A DNA stretch of 64,000 bases from Candidatus Paceibacter sp. (GTDB lineage: Bacteria; Patescibacteriota; Minisyncoccia; Phycocordibacterales; BOKC01): assembly GCA_020724885.1 (NCBI GenBank), contig DYGD01000002.1, positions 3,038 through 67,037 of the forward strand. Direction: 5' to 3'. Below, in pieces: positions 9,930-63,127 of this stretch. Each line of letters begins with the position of its first letter. Position 1 is the first letter of the stretch. The notes below the pieces were generated by a model. The model was not told the origin of the DNA. It was given only the letters and a program-made list of their open reading frames with translations, and did no database searches. The position numbers were made by a program, and so were the translations under genes.

Positions 9930-9932
9930 ATT

Positions 9933-11351: not shown

Positions 11352-11462
11352 GGGTCTTGAGCGCTTTGTGTTGGCGACTAGCTACTCTCCCCTTGCGAGT
11401 ACCATCGCCACTACTGTGCTTAACTTCCGAGTTCGGAATGGAATCGGGTGTACCCACAGCGT
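11352..11462 (-). rRNA. rrf: 5S rRNA
   Basis: Minus-strand sequence CCGATTCCATTCCGAACTCGGAAGTTAAGCACAGTAGTGGCGATGGTACTCGCAAGGGGAGAGTAG matches the 5S consensus. Confidence 0.85.
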
Positions 11463-11852
11463 TTAATCACCAACACAAAAAACTCAAGATTCCAAGAACA
11501 AAAACAGGCAAAACTTTGATTGCATAAAAGAGAGCAAAACCTTGCGATTTTCAAATTTCCCGATGAGATTGATTTATTAGTACGCCTCGGCTCAACACAT
11601 TACTGTGCTTACACCTGGCGCCTATCAACGTGATCATCTCTCACGAATCTTAATGATTCCTAATCTTGGGGTGGGCTTCCCTCTTAGATGCTTTCAGAGG
11701 TTATCCCTTCCGAACTTAGCTACCCAGCGGTGCTCCTGGCGGAACAGCTGGTAGACCAGAGGTTCGTTCCTCGAGGTCCTCTCGTACTATCGAGAACTCC
11801 CCTCAAGAATCAACGCCTGCAGTAGATAGGAGACCAACCTGTCTCACGCAAA

Positions 11853-12160
11853 AGTAGCTCACTAGGCGCTAGGCTTTGGACCTTAGGATCTAGGAACACC
11901 GCCGTTACCGGCGGGATCGGACGATACACTCGCGGTCAATCCGCGGTTGGTTTGTCGTCTCTACAAGGATTTTACTCCTCTCGGTGTTGTCCTTCTAAGG
12001 ATTCCACCGATAACCCCAACTTGTCACTGAATTAGATTCAGTGCCGCCGTGATTTGATTGGTTTCTATCTCTATTCGTAGACGAAAAGTTCGATTACGTC
12101 GTTATGAGCGGATTCAGACGGTACTTATACCGATACTTGACAAAATCTATTTTTATCAGT
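11853..12160 (-). mobile_element. ORF-less intron-like insertion (~305 nt) in 23S near E. coli site ~2585-2593
   Basis: Exon reads GCTGGGTTCAGACCGT [insert] CGTGAGACAGGTTGG versus contiguous E. coli GCTGGGTTTAGAACGTCGTGAGACAGTTCGG. Confidence 0.6.
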
Positions 12161-12289
12161 ATAACTACGGTCTGAACCCAGCTCGCGTACCTTTTTAATT
12201 GGCGAACAGCCAAACCCTTGGAAGCTTCTCCACCTCCAGGATAAGGTGAGCCGACCACTTTCAATCCCCATGTTGCCATGGGAGCAGAC

Positions 12290-13140
12290 TATACCTTTGC
12301 TTATATCCTAACTATAAGCACCAGCGTGTTATGGCAATGTTTTATCAAATTTAATTGAGGCATTTGCCATCTGTTCACTTAAGAACAAGTCGTTACGGGG
12401 CAATACAACCAATCTTGTATTCCATCGGATGGACGATGTATGGTTTTATAAGATTAATCATTTTGAGAGTTTCGGATTTATTTGCATACATCCGAAATCC
12501 TTTGTCACGATCCTTATGGTGAACCATTTGAATACCAAATTTTTTATAAATAGCATTTTCAAGAATTTTTATTTCCTCTAGCACAAAAGAATAAGTGCTG
12601 ATATCAATAATCCCTTTGTTAAAGGATCCGTCGTCCATAATCCATACTGCCATAGATTGAGGATTGAGATCGACTCCGATATCTTTTGGAATTATTTTCC
12701 TACCAACCCTATATCCATCCCCAACATAAAACCTATTGTAGATTTTTGTTAATAATGGATGTCTCACTGTCCTAAACCACCAAGATTTTCGATATTTACT
12801 TCCATTTTCATCATATCGATAACTTATCTTTGGTTCAGTTAGTACCAGGTCTTTCAATACAGAATACTTATACTCTGTATATTCTTTTTGAGCTAATCCC
12901 TGTTCTATTTTGAAGTTAGCATTTACTGCTCCCTTCCCCATTCTCATTGTTCCATCCCCAAGCAAACAACCCACTAAAAGTGAAAGTTGCTCGTCAGTCA
13001 GAAACATTTTTTCTTTAACGGGAATTAAATCCTTGTGCCAATATTTTGTTGCATAGCTTCCCACGGTGTTGACCATACTATAACGCGAATTATAACATGG
13101 CTTTCTCCGTTATGAGCTGATTTAATGTGCATGAAAAATC
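12290..13140 (-). mobile_element. Intron in 23S (near E. coli ~2500, after GGCACCTCGAT) carrying a LAGLIDADG ORF
   Basis: Exon AACAGGCTGGTTCCGCCTAAGAGTCCATATCGACGGCGGAGTTCGGCACCTCGAT is interrupted and resumes at TCGGCTCACC ~12285. Confidence 0.65.
12393..13076 (-). CDS. LAGLIDADG homing endonuclease (intron-encoded)
   Basis: Motifs LLVGCLLGDGTM and AVWIMDDGSF. Confidence 0.8.
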   Translation of the reverse strand: MVNTVGSYATKYWHKDLIPVKEKMFLTDEQLSLLVGCLLGDGTMRMGKGAVNANFKIEQGLAQKEYTEYKYSVLKDLVLTEPKISYRYDENGSKYRKSWWFRTVRHPLLTKIYNRFYVGDGYRVGRKIIPKDIGVDLNPQSMAVWIMDDGSFNKGIIDISTYSFVLEEIKILENAIYKKFGIQMVHHKDRDKGFRMYANKSETLKMINLIKPYIVHPMEYKIGCIAP

Positions 13141-13289
13141 ATACACACGAGAGAATTGTTCGTATTCTCCCCCTCGACATTCGGTATCTATCGAGGTGCC
13201 GAACTCCGCCGTCGATATGGACTCTTAGGCGGAACCAGCCTGTTCATTGTTTTAGCTGGTGAATAGACTATATCATCACCCCGCCTTGG

Positions 13290-14170
13290 CGGGGGACGGC
13301 GTATTAGTATAAATTCTTGTTCGATAGAAATTTATACTCCATTCACAAAAAGTGAATGAGTCGTTACGGGGTCAAAGAGGTGTTTGATTCTCCTAATTTG
13401 TATTGCATTGAAGGTATAACATATTCTCGAATTAGTTCGTGGAGCTTTTTTGTTTCGTTCACTCCAAAAAATAATGCGTAACCCTTCTCTTTTTTGTCGT
13501 AAATTTTTGGTTTTAGGTCAAAATTTTCGACTATTGCATTTTCTAACAATGAAGACTCTTTTTGGGATACTCTGCCGAGATAAATATAGCTAGATTTATC
13601 TCTCAAGTAGTAGTATCCGTCATCCATATACCAAACCGCCAAAGCCAATGGAGCAGTTAATAATTCGGAAATATTTTTCGGCACTTTCTTTTTGCCATCT
13701 TCGTAGAAAATATTTCTCCATTTGCCGATCTCTGGCGAAGCATTGGACTGCCATCGCCAATATCCGTATTGCTTTCTGGTAATCGGATGAATTCTTTCTA
13801 GATGAGACGGTTTTCCTTGGAAAAGGCGCGGGAATTGACTTCCCTTCCAGATTAAATAATCTTTCTGCTTTTCTCCCTGCTCAAATCTAATTCTCGCGTT
13901 TTGAGAACCAGTTTTTTGCAGAAACGCGTCTCCCAACACAGAACCTATTATTATAGATTCCTGCCTTTTGGTTAATTTCATTGTGTTTACATTTTATCAC
14001 CTCTCGACTTCCCACGGGATTGTGCACTCTAAAACTCTTTTGTAAGAGAGACCTGTGCGTTTCCCCCGTTATAAGCCGTTCTTATTCCTGCTCTTGTGGA
14101 TCAAGAAAACAGGAACGCAAGATTTAATCTCGCTTCTCCGCAGATTACTCTGCGGGAGGACAACAAACGC
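13290..14170 (-). mobile_element. Intron in 23S (near E. coli ~2449, after CCCCGGGGA) carrying a LAGLIDADG ORF
   Basis: Exon ...GGATAAAAGCTACCCCGGGGA at ~14171-14200; exon resumes at AACAGGCTGG ~13250. Confidence 0.65.
13364..13981 (-). CDS. LAGLIDADG homing endonuclease (intron-encoded)
   Basis: Motifs IIIGSVLGDAFL and AVWYMDDGYY. Confidence 0.8.
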   Translation of the reverse strand: MKLTKRQESIIIGSVLGDAFLQKTGSQNARIRFEQGEKQKDYLIWKGSQFPRLFQGKPSHLERIHPITRKQYGYWRWQSNASPEIGKWRNIFYEDGKKKVPKNISELLTAPLALAVWYMDDGYYYLRDKSSYIYLGRVSQKESSLLENAIVENFDLKPKIYDKKEKGYALFFGVNETKKLHELIREYVIPSMQYKLGESNTSLTP

Positions 14171-14363
14171 CTTATTTCAGGCGTCATCCCCGGGGTAGCT
14201 TTTATCCGATAATCTTTGGCCGCATCTAAAGCGCGCCAGCGGTTCACTTAGCCCTGCTTTCGCATCTGCTTGAGACGTACCTCTCACAGTTAAGCCAGCT
14301 TATGCCTATACACTATCGGCACGGTTTCCATTCGCGCCTAGCTGACCTTAATGGACTCCTCCG

Positions 14364-14996
14364 TTACTTTTTAGGCAATGTGTTACCCAATTTATATTTC
14401 ATAGAAGGAAGAATGTGCGGCTTAATAAGTTCCTTGAACTTTTTGGCTGACTGAGATTGTATATACAATCTCCAATACTTCCCTTTTTGCTTATGAAGTG
14501 ATGTTTGAAGATCAAACTTATTCTTTAAGATACTCTGAATGCCTTCTAACTCATCTCTACCGTATCCAAGCGTGTGTATTACATATGTTTGATGTCGAGT
14601 AGATTTGAGCGAACCATCATCCATAAACCAGATCGCCAAGCTTAGAGGAGTAAACAACTTCTCAACCACTGTTGGAATAATTTTCTTACCTTCTTGATAA
14701 AAAATCCTTCCAAAACTTCTGAATGCTTCGTGAGAATATGTTCTCACTCCTACATACACCTTTCCATTTTTAACCTTTGTGTATGGTGTGCTTGGTATCC
14801 ATGATTTTAACTCTCGGTAAAGCCATACCAAATATTCATTTTGAGCACCACAGTGTTCAATCTTCAATCTATATGTCTCACCTTTATCCTGAGTCTCAAG
14901 ATGACCGTCTCCAAGTAAAGTGCCAACGATTATTTCTTGCTGGCGCTTCGTCAAGACTAAGCTCTTCTTGAGTTCGCGGATAGCTTTAGTATTCAT
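14364..14996 (-). CDS. LAGLIDADG homing endonuclease (intron-encoded; stop codon lies ~10 nt inside the downstream 23S exon)
   Basis: Motifs IIVGTLLGDGHL and AIWFMDDGSL. Last codons cct aaa aag taa overlap exon sequence CCUAAAAAGUAACGGAGG. Confidence 0.8.
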   Translation of the reverse strand: MNTKAIRELKKSLVLTKRQQEIIVGTLLGDGHLETQDKGETYRLKIEHCGAQNEYLVWLYRELKSWIPSTPYTKVKNGKVYVGVRTYSHEAFRSFGRIFYQEGKKIIPTVVEKLFTPLSLAIWFMDDGSLKSTRHQTYVIHTLGYGRDELEGIQSILKNKFDLQTSLHKQKGKYWRLYIQSQSAKKFKELIKPHILPSMKYKLGNTLPKK

Positions 14997-15355
14997 CGGG
15001 TTCTTGTTTTCACAAGACTCACTGTCGCCAGTGAGATCGGACTATATCTTCATCCTTAATTATAAAGGATGGTTGGTGTTTAGTCTCTACGGGTGTTTAT
15101 GTGCTGGATAGTGAGGGGGAGCGTTAACTGGTAACGCTCCCCCTAGTGAACCCGCCAACATGGTATTTGCCGTAGCATGGAGGACGGGATCCACTATTCA
15201 ACACACAAACTTCCCTCGGAATTGTCTCTTTACAGAGAGTTTTTCCGATATGACCAACTTTTTCCGCCCCGATTCACATCGGGGGGTCCCCCTAATTTGT
15301 TTTTTTCGGAGTCGGAGTAACTCCATGAGGCGCCTGATTTCAAGACACGAAAAAT
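14376..15355 (-). mobile_element. Intron in 23S (domain V region ~E. coli 2250s) carrying a LAGLIDADG ORF; contains a 13-bp GC hairpin (gggggagcgttaac/gttaacgctcccc)
   Basis: Exon GTGGGGCGCTTTCCTTC at ~15356-15372; exon resumes at CCTAAAAAGTAACGGAGGAG ~14376. Boundaries approximate. Confidence 0.55.
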
Positions 15356-15689
15356 CATGTCCTGAAGGAAAGCGCCCCACTTAAACTGCCCACCAGATAA
15401 TGTCCCTTGCCGTTTTTGCCGACGAGGTTAGAACATATCCTTTCACAGAGTGGTATTTCACTGGCGACTCCATGCCGACCGAAACCGGCACTTCAAAGTC
15501 TCCCACCTATGCTACGCAGTAAAAAAATAAGCTCAATATCAAGTTGCAGTAAAGCTCCCGGGGTCTTTTCGTCTAACTGCAGGTAACCGGCATCTTCACC
15601 GGTATTGTATTTTCACCGAGCAAGTCCCCGAGACAGTTGCCCACTCGTTACGCCATTCGTGCACGTCTCTAATTAAGAGACAAGGAATT

Positions 15690-15900
15690 ACGCTCTTCTA
15701 TCCCTTTAACAGAAGGACCATGTCTTCATCTCTGCTTATTAAGCAGAGCGCACGGCGTATGGCCTCTCATATGAGCCGTGATTGGACTATTCTTGTGTCA
15801 CCACAAGAAAGGTAGCTTTCGCATAATTTATTTGTTTATCTCCATAACGATCCCAGTCCTTCTGATTCCCTTAAAAAGAGAATCAGAACCTTAGGATCGT
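15690..15900 (-). mobile_element. ORF-less intron-like insertion (~215 nt) at the classic 23S site 1917 (after CCUAAGGU)
   Basis: Exon GTCGGTCGTAACTATAACGATCCTAAGGT [insert] AGAAGAGCGTAATTCCTTGTC versus contiguous E. coli sequence. Confidence 0.6.
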
Positions 15901-16077
15901 TATAGTTACGACCGACATTCACCAGGGCTTATAACAATCACCAATACATCTTGCGACATATCAACGTCGTTACTTGACCTTCTGGCATTGGTCAGGCGTC
16001 ACCCCCTATACATCCTCTTGCGAGTTCGCAGGGAGCTGTGTTTTTGATAAACAGTCGGCAGGCATACTTTAGCTGCG

Positions 16078-16221
16078 GCCCCCGACACCAACTTTGGCAT
16101 CGTTGCATTGTGTGTTTTCGTAATTTTTGTCGCAATACTTCAGATTTTAAGTAAGAAATTATTACTTACTTTAATCTTTGGAGTTGCAACAAAAACACAA
16201 TGCCAAAGTTGGCGTCGGGGG
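16078..16221 (-). ncRNA. ~145-nt stem-loop insertion / intervening sequence in 23S (variable helix near E. coli ~1720-1750) closed by a 22-bp stem
   Basis: cccccgacaccaactttggcat ... atgccaaagttggcgtcggggg inverted repeat (one G-U); the closing stem and ~40 nt of loop are similar to the element at 18655..18797. Confidence 0.55.
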
Positions 16222-17501
16222 CAGGCCTTATTGCGAACTTACGGCCGCTTTTTTGCCGAGTTCCTTGGGGACCTCTCACTCGTTCGCCTTGGTCTTCTCG
16301 ACCTGACTACCTGTGTCGGTTTTGCGGTACGGTTTGAATCTGCTTAACCTTAGAAGTTTTTCTTGGAAGCGCGCTTTACAAAATTTGATCACCCGAAGGT
16401 TCACATTTTCGTTCTGCTTGGGTTTGTGCCTCCCGGATTTTCCTGGGAAACGCCCTCACAGCGCGAACATAAATCCAATAATATGCTTTGTATACTGCAC
16501 TCCGTCCCTCCATCGAAACAAATTCAAGTCACGGAATATTAACCGTGTGTCCATCACCTTCGGCTTTCGCCATCGGCTTAGGCCCGACTAACCCTTCCCT
16601 GATTATCATCGGGAAGGAAACCTTAGTCTTTCGGCGTCCCGGTTTCTCACCGGGATTGCGGTTACTTGTGCCAACATTCTTACTTCCACACGCTCCAGCA
16701 TGGGTTACCCCTTTGCCTTCAACGCAGAGTGGAATACTCTCCTACCACATGTCAATGCGAAGCACTGACACATCCTCAGTTTCGGTATCATGCTTGAGCC
16801 CCGATTATCTTTGGCGCAAAATCTCTGAATAAGTGAGCTGTTACGCTTTCTTTAAAGGATGGCTGCTTCTAAGCCAACCTCCTTATTGTCAGAGAAATCT
16901 TACAACCTTACGCGCACTTAGCATGAATTTAGGGACCTTAACTAGAGATCTGGGCTGTTTCCCTTTTGACCAATGGAGCTTAGCCCCCACAGTCTAACTG
17001 CCAGATTCTGGCTGCGAGTATTCGGAGTTTGATAGGTTTGACGAGGTTTCCCCCTATTCAAACCTTCCAGTGCTCTACCCCCCGCAGAAACATCTGACGC
17101 TAACCCTAAAGCTATTTCGGAGAGAACCAGCTATTACCAAGTTCGATTAGCTTTTCACTGCTTACCACAAGTCATCCGATGGAGTCGCACGACCAACCGG
17201 TTCGGGCCTCCGCACGCCTTTCGGCGCACTTCACCCTGCTCATGGCAAGATCACTTGGCTTCGGGTCTCATGTATACGACTATTATTTCGCGCTTTTAAC
17301 ACTCGGTTTCCCTGTGGCTCCACCCAGTCAAGGGCTTAGCCAGCCGCATACATAAACTCGTTGGCTCATTCTTCAATAGGCACGCCGTGATGGCTCCCCG
17401 CTTTTGAGTTGTAGAAAACTCTACTTCCCAAAAGTGGGGAGCCACTCCGACTCCTTGTAGGCATATGGTTTCAGGTCTATTTCACCGCCCTCACCGGGCT
17501 G

Positions 17502-17541
<40 letters not shown>

Positions 17542-18625
17542 TCTAACGATATTTAGCCTTACCGGTTAGTTCCGGCAGATTCACCCGAGCTATTGATGTC
17601 TCGAGTTACTCAAGAATAGCAACCAAGGAGTTTTTCTTGTTTTCGCCTACAGGGCTATCACCTCCTGGGGCTTCTCTTTCCAGAGAATTCGGCTAACAAA
17701 AAAATATTTTTTACTCCTCTGGCTAGGCCGTGTTGCTATCTTACAACCCCCCTCCCCAGTTTTGAATTATGGAAATTTCCATATCTCAAAACTGGGGAGG
17801 GGTTTGGGCTCTTTCCTTTTCGCTCGCCGCTACTAAGAAAATTCCTATTGGTCTCTTTTCCTCCGGGTACTGAAATGTTTTACTTCCCCGGGTTTGCATC
17901 TCGAACTGGTCGAGATTTCCGCCAAAAGCGGAAGGGTTTCCCCATTCGGACATCTCCGGATCAAAGGTTGCTAGGCACCTCCCCGAAGCATATCGCCGCC
18001 AAGCCGCGTCCTTCATCGCTCGTTAGAACCTAGGCATCCACCATACGCCCTTGAATTCCCATCAGGAAATTCAAAAACCGCTGTCAATGCGAAGCATTGA
18101 CCGCGGACACACGCAGACAGGACGCAGAAATACGCAGAAATCTAACTCGAAACCACATGGCTACGAATCAAGATTCTGCGACCTTCTGCGTTCGTTCTGC
18201 GATATTCTGCGGTCAGTGCTTCGCACTGACATTTTTGCTCTCTTTTATACAATCAATCTGCGCAAAGCGCAGATTTGCCTGTCCCGAAACCCTATCTTCC
18301 GAAAGAATTCCGGGATAATCTGTCTACAACAAATAAAGACCCCTCGACTACGCTCGGAGTAAACTCCTTAGTAATCAAAAGTTTTGTTGTGACAGGATTT
18401 TGTCTGCGATATCGGGCTATGCCCAACTCGCGGAACTTTTGTCAAACAACATTCCTTCATCCATTCTGGCTCTATCTTCCGGCCAAATTTCTGTTGTTTA
18501 ACAGAAATTTGGCCGAGAGACAAAAAAACCGCCTTTTAAGCGGATTTGACTATCACATAACGATAAAATCACCGTCTCCGCTTGAGTTTTGATATTAAAA
18601 AATTTATTAACATAACTTTATTCTA

Positions 18626-26753: not shown

Positions 26754-26803
26754 TTTCCAGCACCAGTTTTGGGTTCGCGCGAACCCAAAACTGGTGCTGG
26801 AAA
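26754..26803. repeat. 50-nt perfect palindrome (tttccagcaccagttttgggttcgc|gcgaacccaaaactggtgctggaaa)
   Basis: Read directly; lies in a ~700-nt non-coding AT-rich region between two minus-strand genes. Confidence 0.8.
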
Positions 26804-39402: not shown

Positions 39403-39795
39403 TCATCGAGGCAGGAGGTCTGCCATTTGCCTGACAAGGATCCGAGCCATGTCGTTGAATCGTGGATCAGCTTCCTTGACCGGAATATGACGAAATTCCA
39501 TCAGAGCAGCCAACTGAATCTTTTCAGGTTGACAACGGCCAGAATCCGGGCACACCCACAGATCACCGCCCAGGCGAGGATTACGGACGAAAAACCCTTG
39601 AAGAACACACACGTCCCCGCGGTACTCCAACAGGTCTCCCTCACTCACTCCTTCCCAAGACGTACCCTTCGTCATCTCGTCCACAGCGTCTCTTGTCTTC
39701 TTGTCCATAGTTATCAACTCCGTAAGCGTAAGCACACTCCTGAAACCAGAAAGCGACCATCGCTTTCCGCGAACATCTAACCAGGCATTATCCAT
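39403..39795 (-). CDS. Hypothetical protein, GC-rich (probably horizontally acquired), immediately downstream of higA
   Basis: 130-aa ORF with protein-like composition; local GC clearly above genome background; the opposite-strand ORF was rejected. Confidence 0.45.
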   Translation of the reverse strand: MDNAWLDVRGKRWSLSGFRSVLTLTELITMDKKTRDAVDEMTKGTSWEGVSEGDLLEYRGDVCVLQGFFVRNPRLGGDLWVCPDSGRCQPEKIQLAALMEFRHIPVKEADPRFNDMARILVRQMADLLPR

Positions 39796-49157: not shown

Positions 49158-49233
49158 AAAAACAATTTTATCACTTTTGTAATGACTTACAAAAACAAAA
49201 CTCCCCCGCGCAAGCAGGAGAGAAAGAAGAGAT

Positions 49234-49349
49234 TTGCGAGGAGAGCGGGGTTGTTCCGGTTCCAGTCGTTGTCGAGCCAGTTCCAGTTGACCTTGACGCG
49301 GTTGCCGTTCCAGATGAGGTAGGCAACCTTGCGATTGCCGCCGGACTCC
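49234..49349 (-). repeat. DGR template repeat (TR), 116 bp, in the leader of ileS
   Basis: Minus strand reads ...AAT CGC AAG ... AAC GGC AAC ... AAC TGG AAC TGG ... AAC GAC TGG AAC CGG AAC AAC CCC GCT CTC CTC GCA A (Asn/AAC-rich); identical to VR except at adenines. Confidence 0.85.
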
Positions 49350-49622
49350 TGTTGTGTGTGAAGCGCCGTCCGTGCCACCACCCAGCGTGAATGATTTTTA
49401 TCAATCTTCTGGATTGAATCTTATGCCGCATCTCAAATGCGAGAGCGCTTCAAACCAAGTTCCTTCATTTTTTGAAGTTACCCGCATACCACTCTCCCTG
49501 AAGCCTTGACCACAGGAACTCTCGATATACGGATACTGGTTTCGGTAGCCGGAAGCCGTAACCGCCGGTAACTATTCACCTAATACCGCTTTTATTTATA
49601 TCAAATTTTTTGAGGTACGAAA

Positions 49623-49697: not shown

Positions 49698-50249
49698 TCA
49701 AAAATCAAAGGAACTTGCGAGGAGAGCGGGGCAGTCCCGGCGCCAGTCGTCGCCGAGCCAGCGCCAGAGGACCAAGACGCGGTCGCCGTACCAGACGAGG
49801 TAGGCAACCCTGCGACGGCCGCCGGACTCCCGGACAGAACCCCACAGGGAAACCACCTTGTCTTTGAACTCGTCCGGGTAAGTCGTCGGATTGTCGAGCC
49901 AGCCCTTGACCTCCGGGCTCTCCAATGAGCTAGCGCGCTTGATCATACCGGTCTGATCAAGATGTCTAAAGAGTTCAAATCCATCAATCACCCCTCCGCC
50001 TTCTTGTGTTGGATGGAAGTAGAGTTCGTAATCAGGAGGCATCAGCGCCTCGCGAAGCGTTCTGGTGAGAGAACCCTGATTTGTGATCCATCCCTGGGCC
50101 ACATCAGGATCCATGTCTCGAGGCAGACCCCGCGCAACCGCAGACATCAGTTCAGAGAACTGATCAATTCCCATCAGTCCTCCCCGTCCTTCTTTCTTTT
50201 TCCTACCCATTCCGAATTCTCCTTTCTGGCTTACCTCTGATTCGGCCAC
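49698..50249 (-). CDS. DGR target protein with C-terminal variable region (GC-rich gene; probable start at Met26, 50174, preceded by GGAGG)
   Basis: C-terminus ESGGRRRVAYLVWYGDRVLVLWRWLGDDWRRDCPALLA corresponds to TR-encoded ESGGNRKVAYLIWNGNRVKVNWNWLDNDWNRNNPALLA; no signal peptide. Confidence 0.75.
   Translation of the reverse strand: MAESEVSQKGEFGMGRKKKEGRGGLMGIDQFSELMSAVARGLPRDMDPDVAQGWITNQGSLTRTLREALMPPDYELYFHPTQEGGGVIDGFELFRHLDQTGMIKRASSLESPEVKGWLDNPTTYPDEFKDKVVSLWGSVRESGGRRRVAYLVWYGDRVLVLWRWLGDDWRRDCPALLASSFDF
49715..49830 (-). repeat. DGR variable repeat (VR), 116 bp, 3' end of target gene
   Basis: Aligned base-for-base with TR; ~22 mismatches, every one at a TR adenine (coding strand), e.g. 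AAT->CGT, AAC->TAC/GAC/CTC/CGC/TGC, AAG->TTG; ends with GC-rich CCCCGCTCTCCTCGCAA (IMH-like). Confidence 0.85.
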
Positions 50250-51799: not shown

Positions 51800-53518
51800 C
51801 TACATTTTCTCCGGCACCTCAATCCCCAATAGCCACAATCCATTTTGGAGAGTAATAAAAACCGCTTCGGTTAAGGCAATTTTATAAGGAGAATTTTTGT
51901 CTGTTTTATCCACAATTTTTTCTTTAGCGTAAAAGCCGTTGAACTCGCCGGCCAGCTCAATCAAATATGTAGCCAATTTTTGCGGCGCAAATTCTTTCGC
52001 CGCCTCTTCCACCACTTCCGGAAACTTATAAAGTAATCTTTCTACATTATTTATCTCCGTTGATTCAGAATTGGCAGACGGCTTAATCTTTTCCTGCCCG
52101 GCTTTTTCTAAAACTGATTTGGCGCGCACCGCCGAATACTGCAAGTACGGACCGGAGTCGCCCTCAAACGAGAGCGATTTTTCAAAATCAAAAACAATAT
52201 TTTTGCCCGGCGCTTGTTTTAAAATTGAATACTTGAGCGCGGCAACGGCAACTTTGTCGGCAACATCTTCTTTATTTTCTATCTCACGCTCCGCCATTTT
52301 TTGAAGAGCCAGATTATGAAGCTGATTTAAAAGCTCTTCCCCGCCAATGATGTTGCCGGTCCGCGAAGACATCCGGCCTTCGGAAAGACGCAAGCGACCG
52401 TGAGACAAGTGTTCAATTTTTCCTTTGAGTTTAGGAAAAACAAATTCAGACGCTTTAACAACCACTTTATAATATTCGGACTGCTCAACATCGGTAACAG
52501 TAATGGAACGGTCAAATTTAAAAAACTTGCGCTTCAATTCAATTAACCCTAAATCTTTAGCTTCATAAGTCGGCAGGCCTTCGGAATTTATGAAAACGCG
52601 GGTGTGAAGGCCTGATTTCTCACCAGATAAAATTATTGCATTTTCACTTTTCTCAAACATGCCTTCAGCTAAAAATTTGGCGACCAATTTCCGGCCGACT
52701 TCTCCCGCTTCGCTTTCAAAAAAACTGGCGTCAAATTTGCTACCGAGCCGAGTGTAAATTTTTTTAAAATGACTAAGAGAGAGCTCCAGTCCTTTTTTAT
52801 AAATTTCGTTTATCTCCGGGTCGCTCTGTTCGTAGATTTTTTTGTTTATTTCTACAATTTCTTTTCTAGCTGCCTCATCTGCTTCATAAGCTCTATCCCC
52901 TTCCGCATACGCTTTTCCAAGAATTTCTATCGTAAGCTGTTGACTGCTCGTTGTAGAGGTTGTTGGTTGTAGAGGTTGTTGGTTGATTAATGCCCAAACC
53001 ACCTTGGCAACATGAAGCCCGACATCGCCGTGATAAGTCGCTCTTTTAAGTTTTGGCCCTTCCGCTTCAATAAGGCGAGAAACTGCTTCACCGACAATGT
53101 TGTTTACCAAGTGGCCAATATGAAAAACTTTAAAAGGATTCGGCTGGGTGTATTCAATTATTATTTTCTGTCCAACTAGATTCTTGTTCAAACCAAAATC
53201 TTTTTTCTCTTTTAGAATTTCTTTTGTTGAAGAAATAAAAAAATCTTTTGAAAGATAAAAATTTATAAATCCCGGCCCGGCGATTTCGATTTTTTGCAAA
53301 AAATCGAAATCGCCCTGGGTTCGCCGAAGAATAGACACGATTTTCTCCGCCAACTCTCTTGGGTTTTTGCCTAAATCTTTGGCATATAAAAGCGAAACAT
53401 TGGATGAAAAATCGCCGTGAGAAATTTCGGCCGGGTGCTCAAGCTCCACTTTTGGATTTTCTACCCCAAAATCTTCCAGCGCCCTCTTTATTAAATTTTC
53501 CAATTTTTCTTTAATCAC
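51800..53518 (-). CDS. argS: Arginyl-tRNA synthetase (carries an in-frame repeat insertion QQPLQPTTSTTSSQQ)
   Basis: HIGHLVNNIVGEAVSRL (HIGH) and MSSRTGN (KMSKS-equivalent) motifs. Confidence 0.9.
   Translation of the reverse strand: MIKEKLENLIKRALEDFGVENPKVELEHPAEISHGDFSSNVSLLYAKDLGKNPRELAEKIVSILRRTQGDFDFLQKIEIAGPGFINFYLSKDFFISSTKEILKEKKDFGLNKNLVGQKIIIEYTQPNPFKVFHIGHLVNNIVGEAVSRLIEAEGPKLKRATYHGDVGLHVAKVVWALINQQPLQPTTSTTSSQQLTIEILGKAYAEGDRAYEADEAARKEIVEINKKIYEQSDPEINEIYKKGLELSLSHFKKIYTRLGSKFDASFFESEAGEVGRKLVAKFLAEGMFEKSENAIILSGEKSGLHTRVFINSEGLPTYEAKDLGLIELKRKFFKFDRSITVTDVEQSEYYKVVVKASEFVFPKLKGKIEHLSHGRLRLSEGRMSSRTGNIIGGEELLNQLHNLALQKMAEREIENKEDVADKVAVAALKYSILKQAPGKNIVFDFEKSLSFEGDSGPYLQYSAVRAKSVLEKAGQEKIKPSANSESTEINNVERLLYKFPEVVEEAAKEFAPQKLATYLIELAGEFNGFYAKEKIVDKTDKNSPYKIALTEAVFITLQNGLWLLGIEVPEKM
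52950..52985. repeat. Tandem 18-mer repeat gttgtagaggttgttgg x2 inside argS, shared with intergenic repeat at 32981..33012
   Basis: Exact 18-mer match between the two loci. Confidence 0.75.
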
Positions 53519-53595
53519 TATGAAATTTTAGCACACCAAAAGAAAGGGGCTGGTGCTTCACACCAAACCCCGATGGGAGAGTGTCTGACGACGCT

Positions 53596-53868
53596 TCATC
53601 GCTTTCTTCGGCAACCGCGTCGGGTGCACTGTTGTCCTCGGATGTACCTTTTGCAGTTTTGGAGAAGAATTTCCTCCGGCAAGTCCATCCTGCCGGCGCC
53701 GCCGGCGACTTCAGGTAATGCGCGGTTATACAATCGGCAATCCAGGAGCCAACAGCGAGCGTTCCCCTCCGCTCTCTTGTGAGAGCGAATCAGTTCCCTT
53801 AAGCGCCGGATCTCCTGCCCCCTTTGTCCAGAAGTCATTTTTTTGATATCCGGATCGAGTTTTCCCAC
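53596..53868 (-). CDS. Small basic hypothetical protein in GC-rich island (GTG start after GGAGG)
   Basis: 90-aa ORF, Arg/Lys-rich C-terminus, SD GGAGG 4 nt upstream of GTG; preceded by GTTCCG repeat array 53890..53935. Confidence 0.35.
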   Translation of the reverse strand: MGKLDPDIKKMTSGQRGQEIRRLRELIRSHKRAEGNARCWLLDCRLYNRALPEVAGGAGRMDLPEEILLQNCKRYIRGQQCTRRGCRRKR

Positions 53869-54004
53869 CAGACACCTCCTTCAGTGTGTTGCGTGTTCCG
53901 TGTCCTGTTCCGTGTTCCGTTTCTTGTTCCACTTCTCAATATATCATATTTCGCTTATCTAAAATTATCTAAAAAACCACTTCTACCCAACAAAAATAAC
54001 GAAA

Positions 54005-54828
54005 TAACGACATCGTAAGTCATTATTTTTTAATCTTCCAAAATTAAATCCTTAATATCAAAAATATTCTCTGAGTCAAGCTCTTTCAACCATTCGGCTA
54101 TACCTTTTTTGTAATTTTTTGCTCCACCCCAGAAATCATTTAAAAGATTGCGTTGAGTTACTGAAGGGAAATTTTTATTGTCCATATAATCCAGATGGCT
54201 AGACCAGCGATAACTGTTTAAAAATTTCATAGCTTCGCGGACACTTCTTAATTCTCCGCTTCGCCATTCTTTAAATTTTAGATCAAGTGGATTCAAATGA
54301 ATATAGTATGGTAGATGAATAAAATGAGCATCGTTATTAACAATAATTGACTTATATCTTCCTTCAAATAAGGTGCCCGTTCTTTTATAACGTTCGTTGA
54401 AATACTTAGCGTAGCCGATATTTAATTTTTTCATAAACTGCGAAATGCCTCGCTCTATTCTCGGTCGCAGAAGCAAGTGGTAGTGATTAGGCATCAAACA
54501 AAAAGCAAGAAGATCAACCAGTAATTTTCTCGGTCGCTTTTTCACATTAATATGATGACTTACGATGTTGTTATTTTGAGAAAAGCGGTGAAATGAATTA
54601 TTTACCGGTTGTTGATCGTTAAATTCAAATAAGTCGTGGATAAATCTCATTCGATCACGATCATCCATAAAAATTTTTCGTCGATCAACACCCCGACTCA
54701 AAACATGATAAATCTCGCTCATATCATATTATGACAATTAATCTTTTTTTATTTAAATAATTTGATTTCTTTTAAATTTTAACCAAATTAATAATAACAT
54801 ACCACTACAACAAACATAACGACTTACG
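54005..54828 (-). mobile_element. IS200/IS605-family-like insertion sequence (Y1 HUH transposase plus subterminal palindromic ends)
   Basis: Near-identical imperfect palindromes ataacgacatcgtaagtcattat (54005..54027) and ataacgacttacgatgtcattat (54806..54828; reverse-complement-related) flank the tnpA ORF; element ~0.82 kb. Confidence 0.6.
54030..54722 (-). CDS. tnpA: IS200-like / REP-associated tyrosine (Y1 HUH) transposase
   Basis: N-terminal YHVLSRGVDRRKIF, HUH motif HYHLLL, downstream EGRYKS tyrosine. Confidence 0.7.
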   Translation of the reverse strand: MSEIYHVLSRGVDRRKIFMDDRDRMRFIHDLFEFNDQQPVNNSFHRFSQNNNIVSHHINVKKRPRKLLVDLLAFCLMPNHYHLLLRPRIERGISQFMKKLNIGYAKYFNERYKRTGTLFEGRYKSIIVNNDAHFIHLPYYIHLNPLDLKFKEWRSGELRSVREAMKFLNSYRWSSHLDYMDNKNFPSVTQRNLLNDFWGGAKNYKKGIAEWLKELDSENIFDIKDLILED

Positions 54829-54947
54829 ATGTCATTATATTTGATATTAAAATAGGAGATGTTTTTCTAAGCTTCTATAATCTCCTAATTTTTGTTTTTT
54901 ACTCTAATATCCTCCCCTATTAGCTATTGGATTGAAGTGGTTTAAGC

Positions 54948-55376
54948 TTATTTCCTCCCCGTGCTTCCCCACCGACCCTCGCCACGACTGGATGTAGAGA
55001 GTTCTTCAACTTGCTCAAAAGCAACAATCTCCACCGGACAAACCACCAATTGAGCGATTTTGTCGCCTTTTTCAATTTTGTATGGTTCGGAGCCCAGATT
55101 AACCAAATGAACATTATACTCGCCACGATAACCGGCATCATAAACCCCACCCATGGTTGAAAGACCGGCTTTGGCCATACTGCCTTTATCCCAAATCAAC
55201 GCCGCATATCCTTCCGGAAATTCCATAGCAAACCCGAGAAAAAAAATGTGGTGTTCGCCCGAATTTAAAACTTTGTCTTCCAAAGAATACAAATCCATTC
55301 CTACATCGCCCGGATGAGCATAGGAAGGAAGTTTGGACTCTGGATTTAATATTTTTATTTTAAAAATTTGAGGCAT
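54948..55376 (-). CDS. dut: dUTP diphosphatase (start set at MPQIFKIKIL; ORF extends to 55505)
   Basis: Motifs AGYRGE and RGEGRWGSTG. Confidence 0.85.
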   Translation of the reverse strand: MPQIFKIKILNPESKLPSYAHPGDVGMDLYSLEDKVLNSGEHHIFFLGFAMEFPEGYAALIWDKGSMAKAGLSTMGGVYDAGYRGEYNVHLVNLGSEPYKIEKGDKIAQLVVCPVEIVAFEQVEELSTSSRGEGRWGSTGRK

Positions 55377-55508
55377 AAGTAATTTTGGATATTTGAATAA
55401 GTAAACAAATGAATAACAGAATTTTAACATGGAATGAAAAAGGCGCCCGCGACCGGAGGGGGTCACAGGCGCCGTTGGAGAGAACACAGAGTACGAGCTC
55501 TTCATTCG

Positions 55509-56087
55509 TCAGAAGAAGACGATCACGATAGTTGGTTTTTTGAATCTGCAGGTGTTGTTTGTGGAGTCGGTGCATTCCTGCACCTTCTCGCACCGGAGTC
55601 GTGTACAGCCCATGCTGATCCCATCGTCGCAATCGCATGCGTCTGCGACGATGACATTGGCCTTTCCCTGCGCCATGAAGAACTGCTTGGCCTTCATGGC
55701 GACCAGAGAGCCGTCCACGAAGTGGATGTCAATCCACATCGTGATTCTCCCGCCTTCCAAGCCAACGTCGGCCTCGATTGCGAAGATGTCGCTCGCCTCC
55801 GGATCGGGCGAGATAGCGAGGAAGGTGATGCGGTCGGTTTCGACATTGACCGCCTGCTCGGCAGTCGTGAACTCCACCGAGCCGTAGCCGTTGGAGACGC
55901 TGATCTGGATGCCATCCCAGCTGATGCGGAGACCGCCTTCCAGGTAGAAGAGATCCCCGATGGGGATCTCTTCCTGGATTGTGGAGACGGGAGTCGGCTC
56001 GTCAGAGTAGACCACCTGCCCGCTCACGAGGAGCGGACAGAACATCATGGCGACAACCGCCACCAGAATCGAGAGGACTTGCTTCAT
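55509..56087 (-). CDS. Secreted Cys-rich hypothetical protein in GC-rich island
   Basis: Signal peptide MKQVLSILVAVVAMMFCPLLVSGQ; C-terminal CDCDDGISMGCTRLRCEKVQEC; GC far above background. Confidence 0.45.
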   Translation of the reverse strand: MKQVLSILVAVVAMMFCPLLVSGQVVYSDEPTPVSTIQEEIPIGDLFYLEGGLRISWDGIQISVSNGYGSVEFTTAEQAVNVETDRITFLAISPDPEASDIFAIEADVGLEGGRITMWIDIHFVDGSLVAMKAKQFFMAQGKANVIVADACDCDDGISMGCTRLRCEKVQECTDSTNNTCRFKKPTIVIVFF

Positions 56088-56117
56088 GGTTTTTCACTCC
56101 TTGTGTTTTGTCTTGAC

Positions 56118-57092
56118 TCACTCACGGATGTCCCACTCGTACGTCCGAGTGGTCAGCAGACCGGACTGGTATTTTCCTTTCCGGTTGTGGATTCTGAAGT
56201 TCTCCTTTCCGACCATAAGCCCGGTCTCGGCATCCAGGAAGTAGGTGTTGGCGCCGAAAGACACACCGTGGTGTCCTTCTTCAGCGTCCTCTTCGACATC
56301 GTCGTAGAACAGACAGTAGGCCCTGTAGAGTTTGCGACCACTTGGATCAGTCACCGAGTCCAGTAACTGACCTCGGCTGGCGATGACTTTGGCGATGCTG
56401 TCGGCTTCGCCGTTCTGCCAGATCACCCAGGCCTCGGCGTTGGCGCCACAGGCAGCTGGCAGTCCGACAAGCGCCGGATTGCCCAAGACATTCTCCGCTT
56501 GGTCAATCCATTCCTCGTCGTAGAAATCCGACAAGGGGAACGATCCGGACTGCCAAGTGATTCTATTAGACTGCGAAGTGGAACCGTTCAGGAGATTTTC
56601 CACCGAACCGACCGGCCGACCAGTGTCCTCATCCGCCTTGATGCAGATCACAGAAACCGGTTCATCAGAGATGTCGGGTCGGTAGACCTTCGACTCCAAG
56701 CTTCTTGGTGTTGTAGAGATGAATGAGACGATTCTGATCGAGATGTATGTGCCCTTCTCGCCAGCCGCGAGCGCTTGTTGGCTAGCCACTCGGGCATCTC
56801 TTTCTCCAAATTCTCCGTCTTCAAGACCCATTTCGTAGTAGATGACGTCCTCGGTCATCTTGATCTGTATCTCGTGAGACGAGTTGACCGCCTCACGGAA
56901 CCGCTCCGCGAGAATCTTGGCGTCCATCTCTTCCGTAGAGGTGGCGGCCGGTGGCGCGCTCTGATTGGTCTCCTCATCCTGCTGAGGACCGGTAGGATTA
57001 ACCAACAGAGCAAGCACCGCCAAAACCGCAGAGACCGTTTGTGCTTTCATATATGCTCTCCCTTTTCGAGGTGCAGGCAAACCAACCATCAA
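56118..57092 (-). CDS. Secreted hypothetical protein in GC-rich island
   Basis: Signal peptide MKAQTVSAVLAVLALLVNPTGP; GC-rich. Confidence 0.45.
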   Translation of the reverse strand: MMVGLPAPRKGRAYMKAQTVSAVLAVLALLVNPTGPQQDEETNQSAPPAATSTEEMDAKILAERFREAVNSSHEIQIKMTEDVIYYEMGLEDGEFGERDARVASQQALAAGEKGTYISIRIVSFISTTPRSLESKVYRPDISDEPVSVICIKADEDTGRPVGSVENLLNGSTSQSNRITWQSGSFPLSDFYDEEWIDQAENVLGNPALVGLPAACGANAEAWVIWQNGEADSIAKVIASRGQLLDSVTDPSGRKLYRAYCLFYDDVEEDAEEGHHGVSFGANTYFLDAETGLMVGKENFRIHNRKGKYQSGLLTTRTYEWDIRE

Positions 57093-57197
57093 CCGAAACG
57101 CTCGGTTGCGATTAGTTTTAAGTCCATTTTCAGTATAGGAAGTTGGGGCAGCTTGTCAAGAGGTAGATTCAGGGCTGGGGATTACCGCTTCGAGTTC

Positions 57198-58370
57198 TTA
57201 ATTTCTTAAAATTTTATCAATATGTCGAGCTACCCGAATCATATCCTTCTCCGTCTTGCCACGAGTCGTTTCAGCCGCCGTGCCGAGCCGGATGCCAGAT
57301 GGGTCAATCGGACTTCTGGTGTCAAACGGGATGGTATTTTTGTTGACGATAATTCCGGCTTTTTCAAGTTTGTCGCTCGCAACTTTCCCGCTGATTCCTC
57401 TTCCATCCATCCAAACATCCACCAAAATTAAATGGGAATCAGTGCCACCGGAAATTATCCTCCAGCCCGACCGCGAAAGTTCATTGCTTAAAACTTTTGC
57501 ATTTTTAATAACTTGCTTGGCGTATTTTTTAAATTCGGGCGACATCGCTTCTTTGAGCGCAACAGCCGTCGCCGCGATTTGGTTCAAATGCGGCCCACCC
57601 TGAAGACCCGGAAAAACCGCTTTATCAATTTTTTTATTTAATTCCCTCTCATCAACTTTTGAAAAAATCATTGCTGCGCGGGGGCCACGCAAAGTTTTAT
57701 GAACGGTTGTCGTTACAACATCGGCATACAAAAAAGGCGACGGATAAACTCCGCCGGCAATCAGCCCGGCAATATGAGACATATCCACCATCAAAAACGC
57801 GCCACAACTATTTGCAATTTCTCTGAATTTTTTCCAATCAATTAAACGCGGATACGCGGTAAAACCGGCAACGATGATTTTTGGCTTTTCTTTTTGAGCA
57901 ATCTTTTTTAGTTCATCGTAATCCAAAACTTCCGTATTTTTATCAACTCCGAAAGACACTTGCCGCCAAATTTTACCGGTTGCCGACACCTTATGACCGT
58001 GGGTTAAGTGTCCGCCGTGGTCCAAAGACATTCCCATTATCTTCCCTCCGGTCGGGACAAGAGCCAAATAAACCACTAAATTTGCCGGACTGCCGGAAAG
58101 TGGCTGAACATTAACTGCCCACTCTTCCGGATTTAATCTAAAAAGTTTAAGCGCTCTTTTTTGGGCTAAAATTTCAATTTTGTCTGAAATTTCGTTACCG
58201 CCATAGTAGCGGAAATTCGGATAACCTTCGGCATATTTATTAGTCAATTCGGAGCCGAGAGATTTCAAAACATCTTTTGAAACATAATTCTCGGAAGCAA
58301 TTAAATTTATAACGTTTTTCTGCCTCTTGTTCTCGGCTTTGATGAGTTTTTCTACTTCTTTATCTTGCAT
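57198..58370 (-). CDS. glyA: Serine hydroxymethyltransferase
   Basis: LIASENY and VVTTTVHKTLRGPR (PLP-lysine region) motifs. Confidence 0.9.
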   Translation of the reverse strand: MQDKEVEKLIKAENKRQKNVINLIASENYVSKDVLKSLGSELTNKYAEGYPNFRYYGGNEISDKIEILAQKRALKLFRLNPEEWAVNVQPLSGSPANLVVYLALVPTGGKIMGMSLDHGGHLTHGHKVSATGKIWRQVSFGVDKNTEVLDYDELKKIAQKEKPKIIVAGFTAYPRLIDWKKFREIANSCGAFLMVDMSHIAGLIAGGVYPSPFLYADVVTTTVHKTLRGPRAAMIFSKVDERELNKKIDKAVFPGLQGGPHLNQIAATAVALKEAMSPEFKKYAKQVIKNAKVLSNELSRSGWRIISGGTDSHLILVDVWMDGRGISGKVASDKLEKAGIIVNKNTIPFDTRSPIDPSGIRLGTAAETTRGKTEKDMIRVARHIDKILRN

Positions 58371-58869: not shown

Positions 58870-59391
58870 ATGATATACAGAGGAACATTTACCGAGATAC
58901 TTCTTAAAATTTTACTCTACAAAACTCATACTTTTCGACAGGTGGAGGAAATGGTGAGAAGACATCGGCAGTTTGAAGATGTTTCCACCGACTCTATTCG
59001 AAGCACCCTTTCCCGACTTAAAAAGAAAAAGTTGGCGGTAAAAACATCGGCCGGCTGGTCGGCCAGTAATCTGGCTTTGGCTACCTTAGGAAGCAGGAGT
59101 GATTTTAACAAGATTAGCCGTCAGGCGACAAAAAACAATCAGAAAGGAAAATCGAGAGGAAAAGAAGTGGATGAAGACAGAATGATTGTAATGTATGACA
59201 TTCCGGAAAAACTAAGAAGTAAACGTGATCGATTGAGAGACGGATTAAAAATTCTAGGTTTCAAACAAAAGCAGCAAAGTGTCTGGATTGGACCGGCTCC
59301 TTTGCCTCGCGAATTTGTAGAGTTCCTTGGAGAATTAAGAATATTAAAATATATAAACTTTTTTCAGGTTAAGAGTGAAGATATTGTGTAA
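58870..59391 (+). CDS. wHTH + Cas2-like (ferredoxin-fold) domain protein, PaaX-like minimal regulator
   Basis: C-terminal RMIVMYDIPEKLRSKRDRLRDGLKILGFKQKQQSVWIG follows the Cas2 pattern (hVhYDh....RR..h...L...G.R.Q.SV); N-terminal winged-helix-like region. Confidence 0.5.
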   Translation: MIYRGTFTEILLKILLYKTHTFRQVEEMVRRHRQFEDVSTDSIRSTLSRLKKKKLAVKTSAGWSASNLALATLGSRSDFNKISRQATKNNQKGKSRGKEVDEDRMIVMYDIPEKLRSKRDRLRDGLKILGFKQKQQSVWIGPAPLPREFVEFLGELRILKYINFFQVKSEDIV

Positions 59392-59558
59392 GAAAAAGTA
59401 AAAAAACAAAAAGGAGTAAAAAAGTTTCTTATTTAATCCCGCCACAGAATTCTCCATAGCCCGGCCAGTGAGATAGTTTATTTCTTATAAGATTACAATT
59501 CCAATTTGATATTTATTCTCAATCTTTTCTTATCTCATTTCTTATCTCATTCTCAATC

Positions 59559-59592
59559 TTAACAATTTGCCACGGCCGTGGCAAATTGTTAA
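59559..59592. promoter_or_regulatory. 34-nt perfect palindrome ttaacaatttgccacggccgtggcaaattgttaa downstream of 58870..59391
   Basis: Perfect dyad read from sequence. Confidence 0.7.
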
Positions 59593-59733
59593 GGTGTGAT
59601 TTTTAATTAATTTTGATCACTAATTAGTAGCCATTTAGTTACTATTTTAATCAATTTTCAAGCTGTGGAATCTCAACCAAACTCAATCAAACCATACGGA
59701 AGAAGGATGGAAGGATAATTAAGACAGATAATT

Positions 59734-62485: not shown

Positions 62486-63127
62486 TTGAGAGCGAGGAGG
62501 TGTTTTTTGACAAGTGTCCAAGAACTCCGACAAAAGTTCCGTGTGCCGGGAATAAATGACCCCGAAACGCTGGTCCATATCGCCAGATCTCGAAGATACA
62601 GCCAACACTGCAAGATGGTAGAAAACGCCCTCGCCGGCAAATGCCCCTTCTGCCAGATTGATCAAGAACACAACCAGGTAATCCTTGAAACCCAATTCTG
62701 GACTGCCGTCCACTGCAACCCGCCAGAAGATCACACCAGATTCCACGTGCTCTTCATACCCAAACGCCACATAACTAATTCAGAAGCTCTCAATGAAGAT
62801 GAGTGGATCGAGCTGCGCTCCATCCGCGAGCAAGTGCGACAGAGGTTGGATTACCAAAGCCGTGGCTTGTTCATACGGGACGGCGACGCTCGACGATCTG
62901 CCGGAACAATAGCACATCTACACATCCATGAAATAGTTCCCGACGGAACCGGCCGTGTGGAGTTAACCCTCTACAAGGGAGATGAGGACGAAATCAGGGG
63001 CCTTCAGAGAGCGATAGTCTACGAGAAGCTCCGCCAAGCGGGAATCCGCCCAGACGAATCTTCGGTTCTCGCCCGAAACGTTCTCTCGCCGGAGGAACAT
63101 GAGCTGGTAGCAGATCGCCTCGGGTGA
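62486..63127 (+). CDS. Second HIT-family protein, GC-rich paralogue
   Basis: CPFCQID and histidine triad HLHIHEIV; GC above background. Confidence 0.65.
   Translation: MRARRCFLTSVQELRQKFRVPGINDPETLVHIARSRRYSQHCKMVENALAGKCPFCQIDQEHNQVILETQFWTAVHCNPPEDHTRFHVLFIPKRHITNSEALNEDEWIELRSIREQVRQRLDYQSRGLFIRDGDARRSAGTIAHLHIHEIVPDGTGRVELTLYKGDEDEIRGLQRAIVYEKLRQAGIRPDESSVLARNVLSPEEHELVADRLG

Follow-up and report, generated by a model that had tools for sequence, protein, structure and literature searches.

Three unrelated units, rather than one accessory island, probably make up the compositionally atypical glyA-argS region of a Candidatus Paceibacter contig

The subject of this study is the run of minus-strand genes from glyA to argS in a 64-kb stretch of the Candidatus Paceibacter contig DYGD01000002.1 (hereafter the window; GC content 43%), for which we used as source annotation that of the JGI contig Ga0246236_1000113 (101,867 bp), which contains the window. 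Judged by GlyA, the nearest species representatives are metagenome-assembled genomes of Paceibacterota/Parcubacteria, with at most 77% identity. A preliminary description had read the region as an accessory island acquired horizontally with the help of an insertion sequence. We consider it probable that the region instead holds three unrelated units: a cassette of two orphan genes, X and Y, a Y1 transposase gene flanked by hairpins, and a small gene that we call orf90. The features, from glyA towards argS and followed by a hairpin copy elsewhere in the window, are these:

57198-58370, minus strand: glyA
57132-57159, minus strand: predicted sigma-70-type promoter of X-Y, TTGACA-16-TATACT, matching 11 of 12 consensus positions
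56118-57050, minus strand: X, an orphan of 310 amino acids (aa) with an N-terminus that looks by eye like a signal peptide; GC 0.555, GC at third codon positions (GC3) 0.66
55509-56087, minus strand: Y, an orphan of 192 aa, again with a signal-peptide-like N-terminus by eye; GC 0.575, GC3 0.79
55442-55473, minus strand: predicted intrinsic terminator closing X-Y, a 13-bp stem with 10 G-C pairs followed by TTTTT
54948-55376, minus strand: dut, encoding dUTPase (Pfam dUTPase, E 1.2e-24); GC 0.43; start codon according to the source gene call
54816-54838, plus strand: 5'-flank hairpin ATAACGAC-TTACGAT-GTCATTAT, with one stem mismatch
54030-54722, minus strand: Y1 HUH transposase gene, RAYT-like (TnpA_Y1 subclass 2.1-like), 230 aa; GC 0.34; Pfam Y1_Tnp 41.5 bits against a cut-off of 23
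54553-54575, plus strand: degenerate in-frame hairpin copy inside the transposase gene, encoding N-N-I-V-S-H-H and no longer folding
54004-54026, minus strand: 3'-flank hairpin, inverted relative to the 5' copy, with one stem mismatch
53886-53930, minus strand: tandem repeat, GGAACAC x5 on the coding strand (TRF: period 7, 5.3 copies)
53596-53868, minus strand: orf90, encoding a small basic Cys-containing protein of 90 aa; GTG start, ribosome-binding site GGAGG at 53875-53879; GC 0.55
53550-53566, minus strand: terminator-like hairpin 3' of orf90
51800-53518, minus strand: argS
2622-2642, plus strand: solo intergenic hairpin copy, TAAGGAC-TTGCGAT-GTCGTTA

The region is compositionally foreign. 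In 200-nt windows GC runs at 0.51-0.58 over 53500-53900 and at 0.49-0.61 over 55400-57100, the background in 300-nt windows outside the rRNA operon being 0.428±0.058, and GC3 is raised in Y (z 6.9), X (z 4.5) and orf90 (0.58, z 3.1) relative to 48 host open reading frames (ORFs; 0.414±0.055). The transposase gene is AT-richer than the host, and dut is host-like. Both the GC jumps and the host-like composition of dut had been claimed in the preliminary description, and the windowed values and GC3 scores bear them out.

Abrupt changes of composition in a metagenome-assembled contig, together with a long antisense ORF (55434-56366) over Y and part of X, might also point to an assembly chimera or contamination, or to a structured non-coding RNA. 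We give these readings next to no credence and regard them as excluded for practical purposes. Separately assembled Logan contigs (SRR6488413, SRR5011273) are 100% identical to the window across the argS/orf90/transposase/dut/Y junctions, and eight contigs from other samples (L001-L008, with about 75% housekeeping identity to the window) share the gene order. Against a non-coding RNA, dN/dS relative to L004 is well below 1 in the annotated frames (X 0.33, Y 0.17) and an Rfam search over 53300-57400 returned no match. The antisense stretch varies from 134 to 285 aa among relatives, and we rejected it as a gene, the sense frames being under purifying selection. Since dN/dS is low and the antisense stretch is not conserved, we take X and Y to be real genes.

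The same eight contigs show the order glyA-X-Y-dut-argS, with neither a transposase nor orf90, and the spacing between dut and argS in these relatives is 45 bp (L002). Because the relatives carry X-Y yet lack both other units, X-Y is regarded as shared, and the transposase with orf90 (~1.4 kb) as lineage-specific. Compared with a recently acquired island, the region shows the atypical composition, whereas absence from the same site in relatives holds for the transposase element and orf90 and fails for X-Y. Neither mobility-gene ends, nor a tRNA gene, nor direct repeats bound the region: the hairpins enclose the transposase gene alone, no flanking direct repeats were found, and no tRNA gene was found in the 64-kb window.

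A single island built by an IS200/IS605-type element, with GC-rich genes drawn from a higher-GC host or partner, would explain why GC-rich segments lie on either side of the Y1 transposase gene and why orf90 and the transposase are both missing at this site in the relatives. We nevertheless hold such an island to be quite improbable, because the relatives carry X-Y without any transposase, the hairpins enclose nothing beyond the transposase gene, the features that define IS200/IS605 (tyrosine motif, protein size and arrangement of the ends) are absent, and orf90 homologues never adjoin such a transposase. Moreover, the transposase homologues found in the hairpin loci described below have no passenger genes, and none of them lies near dut, argS, glyA, X, Y or an orf90 homologue. 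The two genes for secreted proteins had been said to flank dut; in fact both lie on its glyA side, and in all relatives X-Y is found beside dut. From the proposed acquisition with an insertion sequence there remain the foreign composition and a lineage-specific insertion of the transposase element and orf90; for X-Y, neither the association with an insertion sequence nor the recent date survives. Orthologues in related genomes had been named in the preliminary description as grounds for refutation, and for X-Y such orthologues exist. The transposase did not deliver the GC-rich genes. More generally, a GC jump beside a transposase gene is no proof of delivery by it; here, the relatives separated one old locus from two later insertions.

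The reading that we favour is one of three independent insertions into glyA-dut-argS, a neighbourhood with phylum-wide conservation that would be prone to insertion. X-Y, of foreign or horizontally circulating origin, would have come to lie beside dut before the split from the nearest sampled relatives, and would then have diversified through recombinational swapping of allele blocks. A RAYT-type transposase and its cognate hairpin, which is similar to repetitive extragenic palindromic (REP) sequences, would have been inserted later between dut and argS, and orf90 would have landed in the dut-argS spacer from a GC-richer patescibacterial source. We infer the order of these insertions, as well as the function of X-Y and the enzymology of the transposase. 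In 47 Paceibacterota loci, glyA, dut and argS follow one another in this order, with a glyA-dut spacer of 5-3895 bp. In a sample of 80 glyA loci (L012-L091) neither X nor Y occurred (0/80), and outside the X-Y clade the content of the spacer is not GC-rich. Across the glyA loci, Dut is 31-69% identical to that of the window and does not track GlyA identity (45% in L095, a contig discussed below). The glyA-dut neighbourhood, dut included, seems prone to replacement. Apart from a modestly new transposase variant and the unexplained persistence of high GC in X-Y, the region appears to be mostly ordinary genome flux.

X-Y (55442-57159) is, as far as sequence signals allow, a self-contained transcription unit with its own predicted promoter and terminator. 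TTGACA-N17-TATAAT stands at the corresponding place in L001, L004 and L098, and a hairpin equivalent to the terminator was found in L001 and L004. At the start of both proteins a basic residue precedes a hydrophobic stretch, and by eye we took these N-termini as signal peptides. The family alignment of Y has a conserved motif, LP.GDLF, and the protein is beta-rich in its middle and Cys-rich in its tail (C-x-C...GC...C...C...C); the Cys-rich tail ascribed earlier to one of the secreted proteins is indeed there, with six Cys within the last 45 residues of Y. We infer that X-Y is a cell-surface or secreted pair under diversifying selection, with a role in the interaction with a host or with phage; as such it would be a candidate for a surface or host-interaction factor, in organisms whose life is spent attached to other cells. 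Other readings were considered. For a polymorphic toxin-immunity pair no toxin domain was found, without a formal test; X is most conserved at its C-terminal end, and both N-termini resemble signal peptides. For a diversity-generating retroelement, no reverse-transcriptase domain turned up in the ORFs scanned, again without a formal test. As to a phage origin, no relatives of orf90 or Y were found in IMG/VR, and the hairpin of the transposase element occurs there on one viral contig alone. A near-perfect palindrome of L098 (~205-250), TTCTGCTA-TAATGG-TAGCAGAA, shares bases with the -10 box of the X promoter and recurs upstream of X in L001 and L004. The window lacks this palindrome, which is kept even though the X proteins of the cassettes that have it are no more than 28-29% identical; it could be an operator.

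Homologues of X and Y are confined to a handful of contigs. Among 5.8e9 proteins X has two other clusters and Y has one (73% identity); three more, remote relatives of X came from a profile search of 1.84 billion representatives. Wherever the pair is found, Y lies directly downstream of X. The first remote relative (L095-L097) shows the order glyA-dut-X'-Y'-argS, with GC of 0.49 and 0.52 compared with 0.37-0.43, in a lineage nearer to the window than any species representative (ArgS identity 67% vs at most 53%). A short contig carries the second (L098), an X-Y pair, and the third (L223) is a lone X homologue with GC 0.53, which stands out as a low-GC island on a contig of 64% GC. Between the window and L004, synonymous divergence (dS) is 1.24 for X and 0.99 for Y, and 0.94, 1.56 and 2.09 for the flanking dut, glyA and argS; identity at fourfold degenerate sites agrees, the divergence of X-Y being about that of the flanks. 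Since dS of X and Y is similar to that of the flanks, X-Y seems to be of the same age as the split from the L004 lineage.

Within the clade the cassette is mosaic. Dut and GlyA of L001 and L004 are 99-100% identical, while X is 87% and Y 39% identical. Nucleotide identity between the two contigs is 100% up to the middle of X, 63-72% from there to its end, for the most part 35-57% over Y (67-69% in two of ten windows), and 92-100% from the stop codon of Y onwards; L008 carries a third combination of X-Y alleles. We interpret the mosaic as replacement of allele blocks by recombination in conserved flanks. Hypervariable surface-protein loci and 'flexible genomic islets' are systems in which divergent allele blocks are swapped via homologous recombination in conserved flanks, and X-Y is like them, as a general comparison with the class rather than with a named family, in its flanks (99-100% protein identity), its divergent blocks (39%), its sharp breakpoints, its predicted exported products and its atypical composition. 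It differs in that its proteins are orphans with no recognisable domain, in that its composition is decoupled from the host in both directions, and in that no integrase, tRNA or phage genes lie near it.

What sets X-Y further apart is the persistence of its composition. The X family has GC of 0.49-0.555 in hosts at 0.40-0.43 and in one host at 0.64. X of L095 shares 36% identity with its homologue on the 64%-GC contig and 25% with that of the window, and the X tree is incongruent with host relatedness. At the fourfold sites of Y shared by the window and L004, agreement in G/C versus A/T state is 0.65, where saturation would give 0.67, so that the state is fully randomised; yet GC at these sites (GC4) is 0.76-0.82 in both, an analysis that covers 129 shared fourfold sites at divergence near saturation. 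Relaxation to host composition at the rate of the flanks would need an ancestral X-Y GC4 of 1.14, which is impossible. Hence, with the state randomised, GC4 still high and the required ancestral value impossible, the high GC of X-Y would not be the decaying relic of a single transfer; either alleles have been imported repeatedly from a pool of ~50-57% GC, or the composition is held by selection or biased gene conversion.

One form of the latter is that X-Y is a vertically inherited, clade-specific core locus whose high synonymous GC is maintained in place by selection on synonymous sites or mRNA, or by GC-biased gene conversion at a hotspot. We regard this as possible and, on balance, unlikely. 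X-Y lies beside dut in all sampled clade members with dS equal to that of the flanks, the GC4 values and their randomised state are as maintenance in place would have them, the locus demonstrably recombines, and a HIT-like gene of the window (62615-63127) has a syntenic orthologue in L095 that is GC-elevated as well. On the other hand, the sample of fourfold sites is small and its divergence near-saturated, other exported proteins and the ribosomal proteins of the window are at host GC3, and the incongruent X tree and the X homologue lying below host GC in the 64%-GC contig fit horizontal circulation better than a local upward pressure. To our knowledge, the gene-conversion effects on GC3 reported for bacteria are far below the +0.25 to +0.4 seen here, which we count against maintenance in place. 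A broader proposal, doubtful as it stands, is that X-Y represents a rare family of exported-protein cassettes that keeps ~50-57% GC whatever the host (40-64%) despite full synonymous turnover, so that a force other than recent transfer sets its composition; selection on synonymous sites and unusually strong GC-biased gene conversion are the candidates. We know of no gene-specific compositional equilibrium of such size described in bacteria. X-Y could be a natural test case for local GC kept against the mutational bias of a genome.

Returning to the second unit of the three, the Y1 transposase gene of the preliminary description is present (Pfam Y1_Tnp, E 1.7e-10); its product carries the HUH motif H80-Y-H82, the tyrosine motif Y140-IHLNP145, LFEGR and an 'SS' tail. 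It scores 38.7 bits with NCBIfam NF047646 (REP_Tyr_transpos), below the equivalog cut-off of 80, and is related to E. coli-type RAYT without being its equivalog. The near-identical imperfect palindromes reported at its sides exist, with none expected by chance; the second had been put at 54806-54828 and lies at 54816-54838, the first being at 54004-54026. The two are 89% complementary, i.e., inverted copies of one hairpin. Further copies, when sought, proved to be the degenerate one inside the gene and the solo intergenic one, the only copy beyond the element within the window. A scan of metagenome contigs with AAYGACTTACGATGTCRTT matched at least 120 contigs, 80 loci of which form our hairpin sample. 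Their consensus is T-AACGAC-TTACGAT-GTCGTT-A with no conservation beyond it, copies at up to three mismatches number 134 in these loci and 0 in shuffled sequence, and there are up to eight per locus. Three quarters of the copies (75%) are intergenic, whereas intergenic sequence makes up ~17% of the total. Abutting inverted doublets, with starts 21 nt apart and forming 42-nt palindromes, occur in L124, L137, L160, L162 and others, and resemble minimal REPIN doublets.

Transposase homologues lie in 15 of the 80 hairpin loci (30-64% identity, on contigs of 30-59% GC) and are typically bracketed by inverted hairpins, as in most of the 14 homologous loci examined. In most of them a hairpin copy, exact or near-exact, is found in frame at a distance of 140-182 nt from the gene start; it occupies the same codon position and encodes N-D-(I/F)-V-S-R-Y. 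The internal copies share variants with the flank copies of the same lineage: L138 and L155 have G...C ends, L117, L135 and L139 the loop TTGCGAT, and L120 a stem variant. Because these variants are lineage-specific and common to internal and flank copies, the pattern argues for a role of the internal copy at the DNA level. By analogy with characterised RAYTs, the transposase would bind the hairpin as single-stranded DNA, cleave it there and thereby spread its copies. The hairpin offers biochemistry a defined 21-nt substrate, with an internal in-frame copy that co-varies with the flank copies.

Among known systems the element resembles subclass 2.1 or RAYT-type systems and not IS200/IS605. Subclass 2.1 (Bertels group 1; 'TIRYT') has been characterised by NH[YF]H, FQ, Y[IV]HLNP, an 'SS' tail and a median of 238 aa, and has been reported either without nearby REP-like sequences or with GGGG[AT][CG]A[CG] terminal inverted repeats (PMC6006769). 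By motif inspection rather than by the authors' profiles, the window protein is similar (NHYH, FQ/FE, YIHLNP, 'SS' tail, 230 aa). Its flanks, however, are AACGAC/GTCGTT hairpins that are also dispersed, and thus neither terminal repeats nor a REP-free setting; the internal hairpin copy, N-terminal to HUH, is a further difference. With the RAYT/REPtron of E. coli (yafM and REP; PMC2817692, PMC6006769) it shares a Y1 HUH protein with the class-2 'Y---NP' motif, a gene flanked by inverted short palindromic hairpins, and a hairpin dispersed mostly between genes, alone or as inverted REPIN-like doublets. Unlike REP, the hairpin has no GT[AG]G foot and a conserved unit of only ~21-23 nt, and one hairpin core serves proteins as divergent as those above, in contigs of such differing GC; the protein falls below the RAYT equivalog cut-off, and a single solo copy is found in the window. 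IS200/IS605 (subclass 1.1) elements are likewise small and AT-rich, with a Y1 HUH core and hairpins at the ends, but the window protein has Y---NP (YIHLNP) instead of Y---Q and 230 aa with a C-terminal tail instead of ~150 aa, the ends are inverted copies of one hairpin rather than distinct left and right hairpins on one strand, and a single gene copy is present with no adjoining tnpB-like ORF (window and L092). The earlier classification as IS200/IS605-like therefore does not hold. With this element, systems of the REP/RAYT type would reach into Patescibacteria and into a protein subclass that has been described as lacking REP; in the literature available to us we found no paper that links RAYT with Patescibacteria, nor any that mentions the source accessions.

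The third unit, orf90, is on the evidence of its conservation a real gene that the source annotation missed, having instead a 68-aa ORF in another frame, and thus adds a gene to that annotation. The 90-aa ORF with its GGAGG-GTG start, as described earlier, proved genuine: ten homologues (54-71% identity) share its N-terminus, and 22 columns are invariant, including N-x-R-C-W, L-Y, C-x-x-Y-I and Q. The patescibacterial neighbourhoods of the homologues are unrelated, and the GC of the homologues mostly equals or slightly exceeds that of the host; the contig with the closest homologue has 50-56% GC. The 230-aa neighbour of this closest homologue is a GTPase, and the idea that orf90 travels with a transposase was rejected. 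In L010 (287-6304) another homologue lies where GC is locally higher, with genes for a large serine recombinase and a glycoside hydrolase 19 close by; this stretch may be a prophage or an integrative element. Upstream of orf90, what had been taken for a GTTCCG repeat array is a 7-nt repeat, GTGTTCC x5.3, at 53886-53930 (GTTCCG itself has 30 matches in the window, 28.6 being expected). The repeat belongs to a putative leader, with a weak promoter-like site (53943-53971) on one side and the orf90 ribosome-binding site on the other, and is absent upstream of the orf90 homologues. As a structured element it was rejected, since it does not fold as a single strand (z +0.6).

Several points weigh against the reading of three separate insertions and the roles that we attach to the units. 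Two unrelated insertions in one 45-bp spacer would be a coincidence, and a joint arrival of orf90 and the transposase explains this better. At a dS of about 1-2, which is near saturation, the statement that X-Y is as old as its flanks is approximate. X-Y lies between dut and argS in L095 and between glyA and dut in the window, with Dut only 45% identical, so that one ancient insertion followed by rearrangement and two independent insertions are indistinguishable. No GC-rich donor pool was found among the 5.8e9 proteins or in viral contigs. The function proposed for X-Y stands without a family or structure match: X, Y and orf90 gave no match in Pfam, NCBIfam, PHROG, PADLOC or PDB sequences, and the AlphaFold models, from alignments of 2-3 sequences, are unusable (mean predicted confidence, pLDDT, 45 for X and 42 for Y). 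As for the transposase, each flank hairpin of the window has a stem mismatch and the internal copy is unfolded, and the element may be decaying rather than active; by a rough estimate, ~20 of the metagenome hairpin matches could be chance hits to a 19-mer.

Further observations concern the rest of the window. Other small GC-rich genes lie at 49698-50249, 62615-63127 and 39403-39795. The first (minus strand) is an orphan with GC 0.57 and GC3 0.62, whose C-terminal motif, RVAYLVW.G.RV.V.W.WL.DDW...PALLA, recurs in the adjacent degenerate ORF 49187-49381 (minus strand); in L002 and L095 the matching position has no homologue of it, and the GC-rich gene that follows argS in L095 is not one either. 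The second (plus strand) is the HIT-domain gene mentioned above, with GC 0.54, and has thyA, folA and another HIT gene as neighbours; in L095, the orthologue in synteny (618-1232, minus strand) is 37% identical to it and has GC 0.49 vs 0.38-0.44, which makes it a second case of GC elevation persisting across lineages. Upstream of glyA, 58870-59391 (plus strand) encodes a 173-aa protein with a PaaX central Cas2-like domain (E 6e-17) and a weak CRISPR Cas2 match. Positions 1-18050 hold an rRNA operon with group I introns in 16S and 23S, the 23S matches being split into several pieces; ORFs of 205-240 aa between the rRNA matches may be homing endonucleases.

Inside argS, 53279-53314 is a perfect loop-less palindrome of 36 nt, GGCGATTTCGATTTTTTGCAAAAAATCGAAATCGCC, which is in frame and encodes GDFDFLQKIEIA. 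The orthologues in L002 and L095 have its right half only (K/R-IE-I/V-A), and for this reason the left half seems to have arisen by inverted duplication of the right, such as a template switch would yield. Two separately assembled contigs terminate within this palindrome. Perfect loop-less palindromes also occur at 26754-26803 (50 nt) and 59558-59593 (36 nt), outside the listed ORFs of at least 90 aa, and may be bidirectional terminators.

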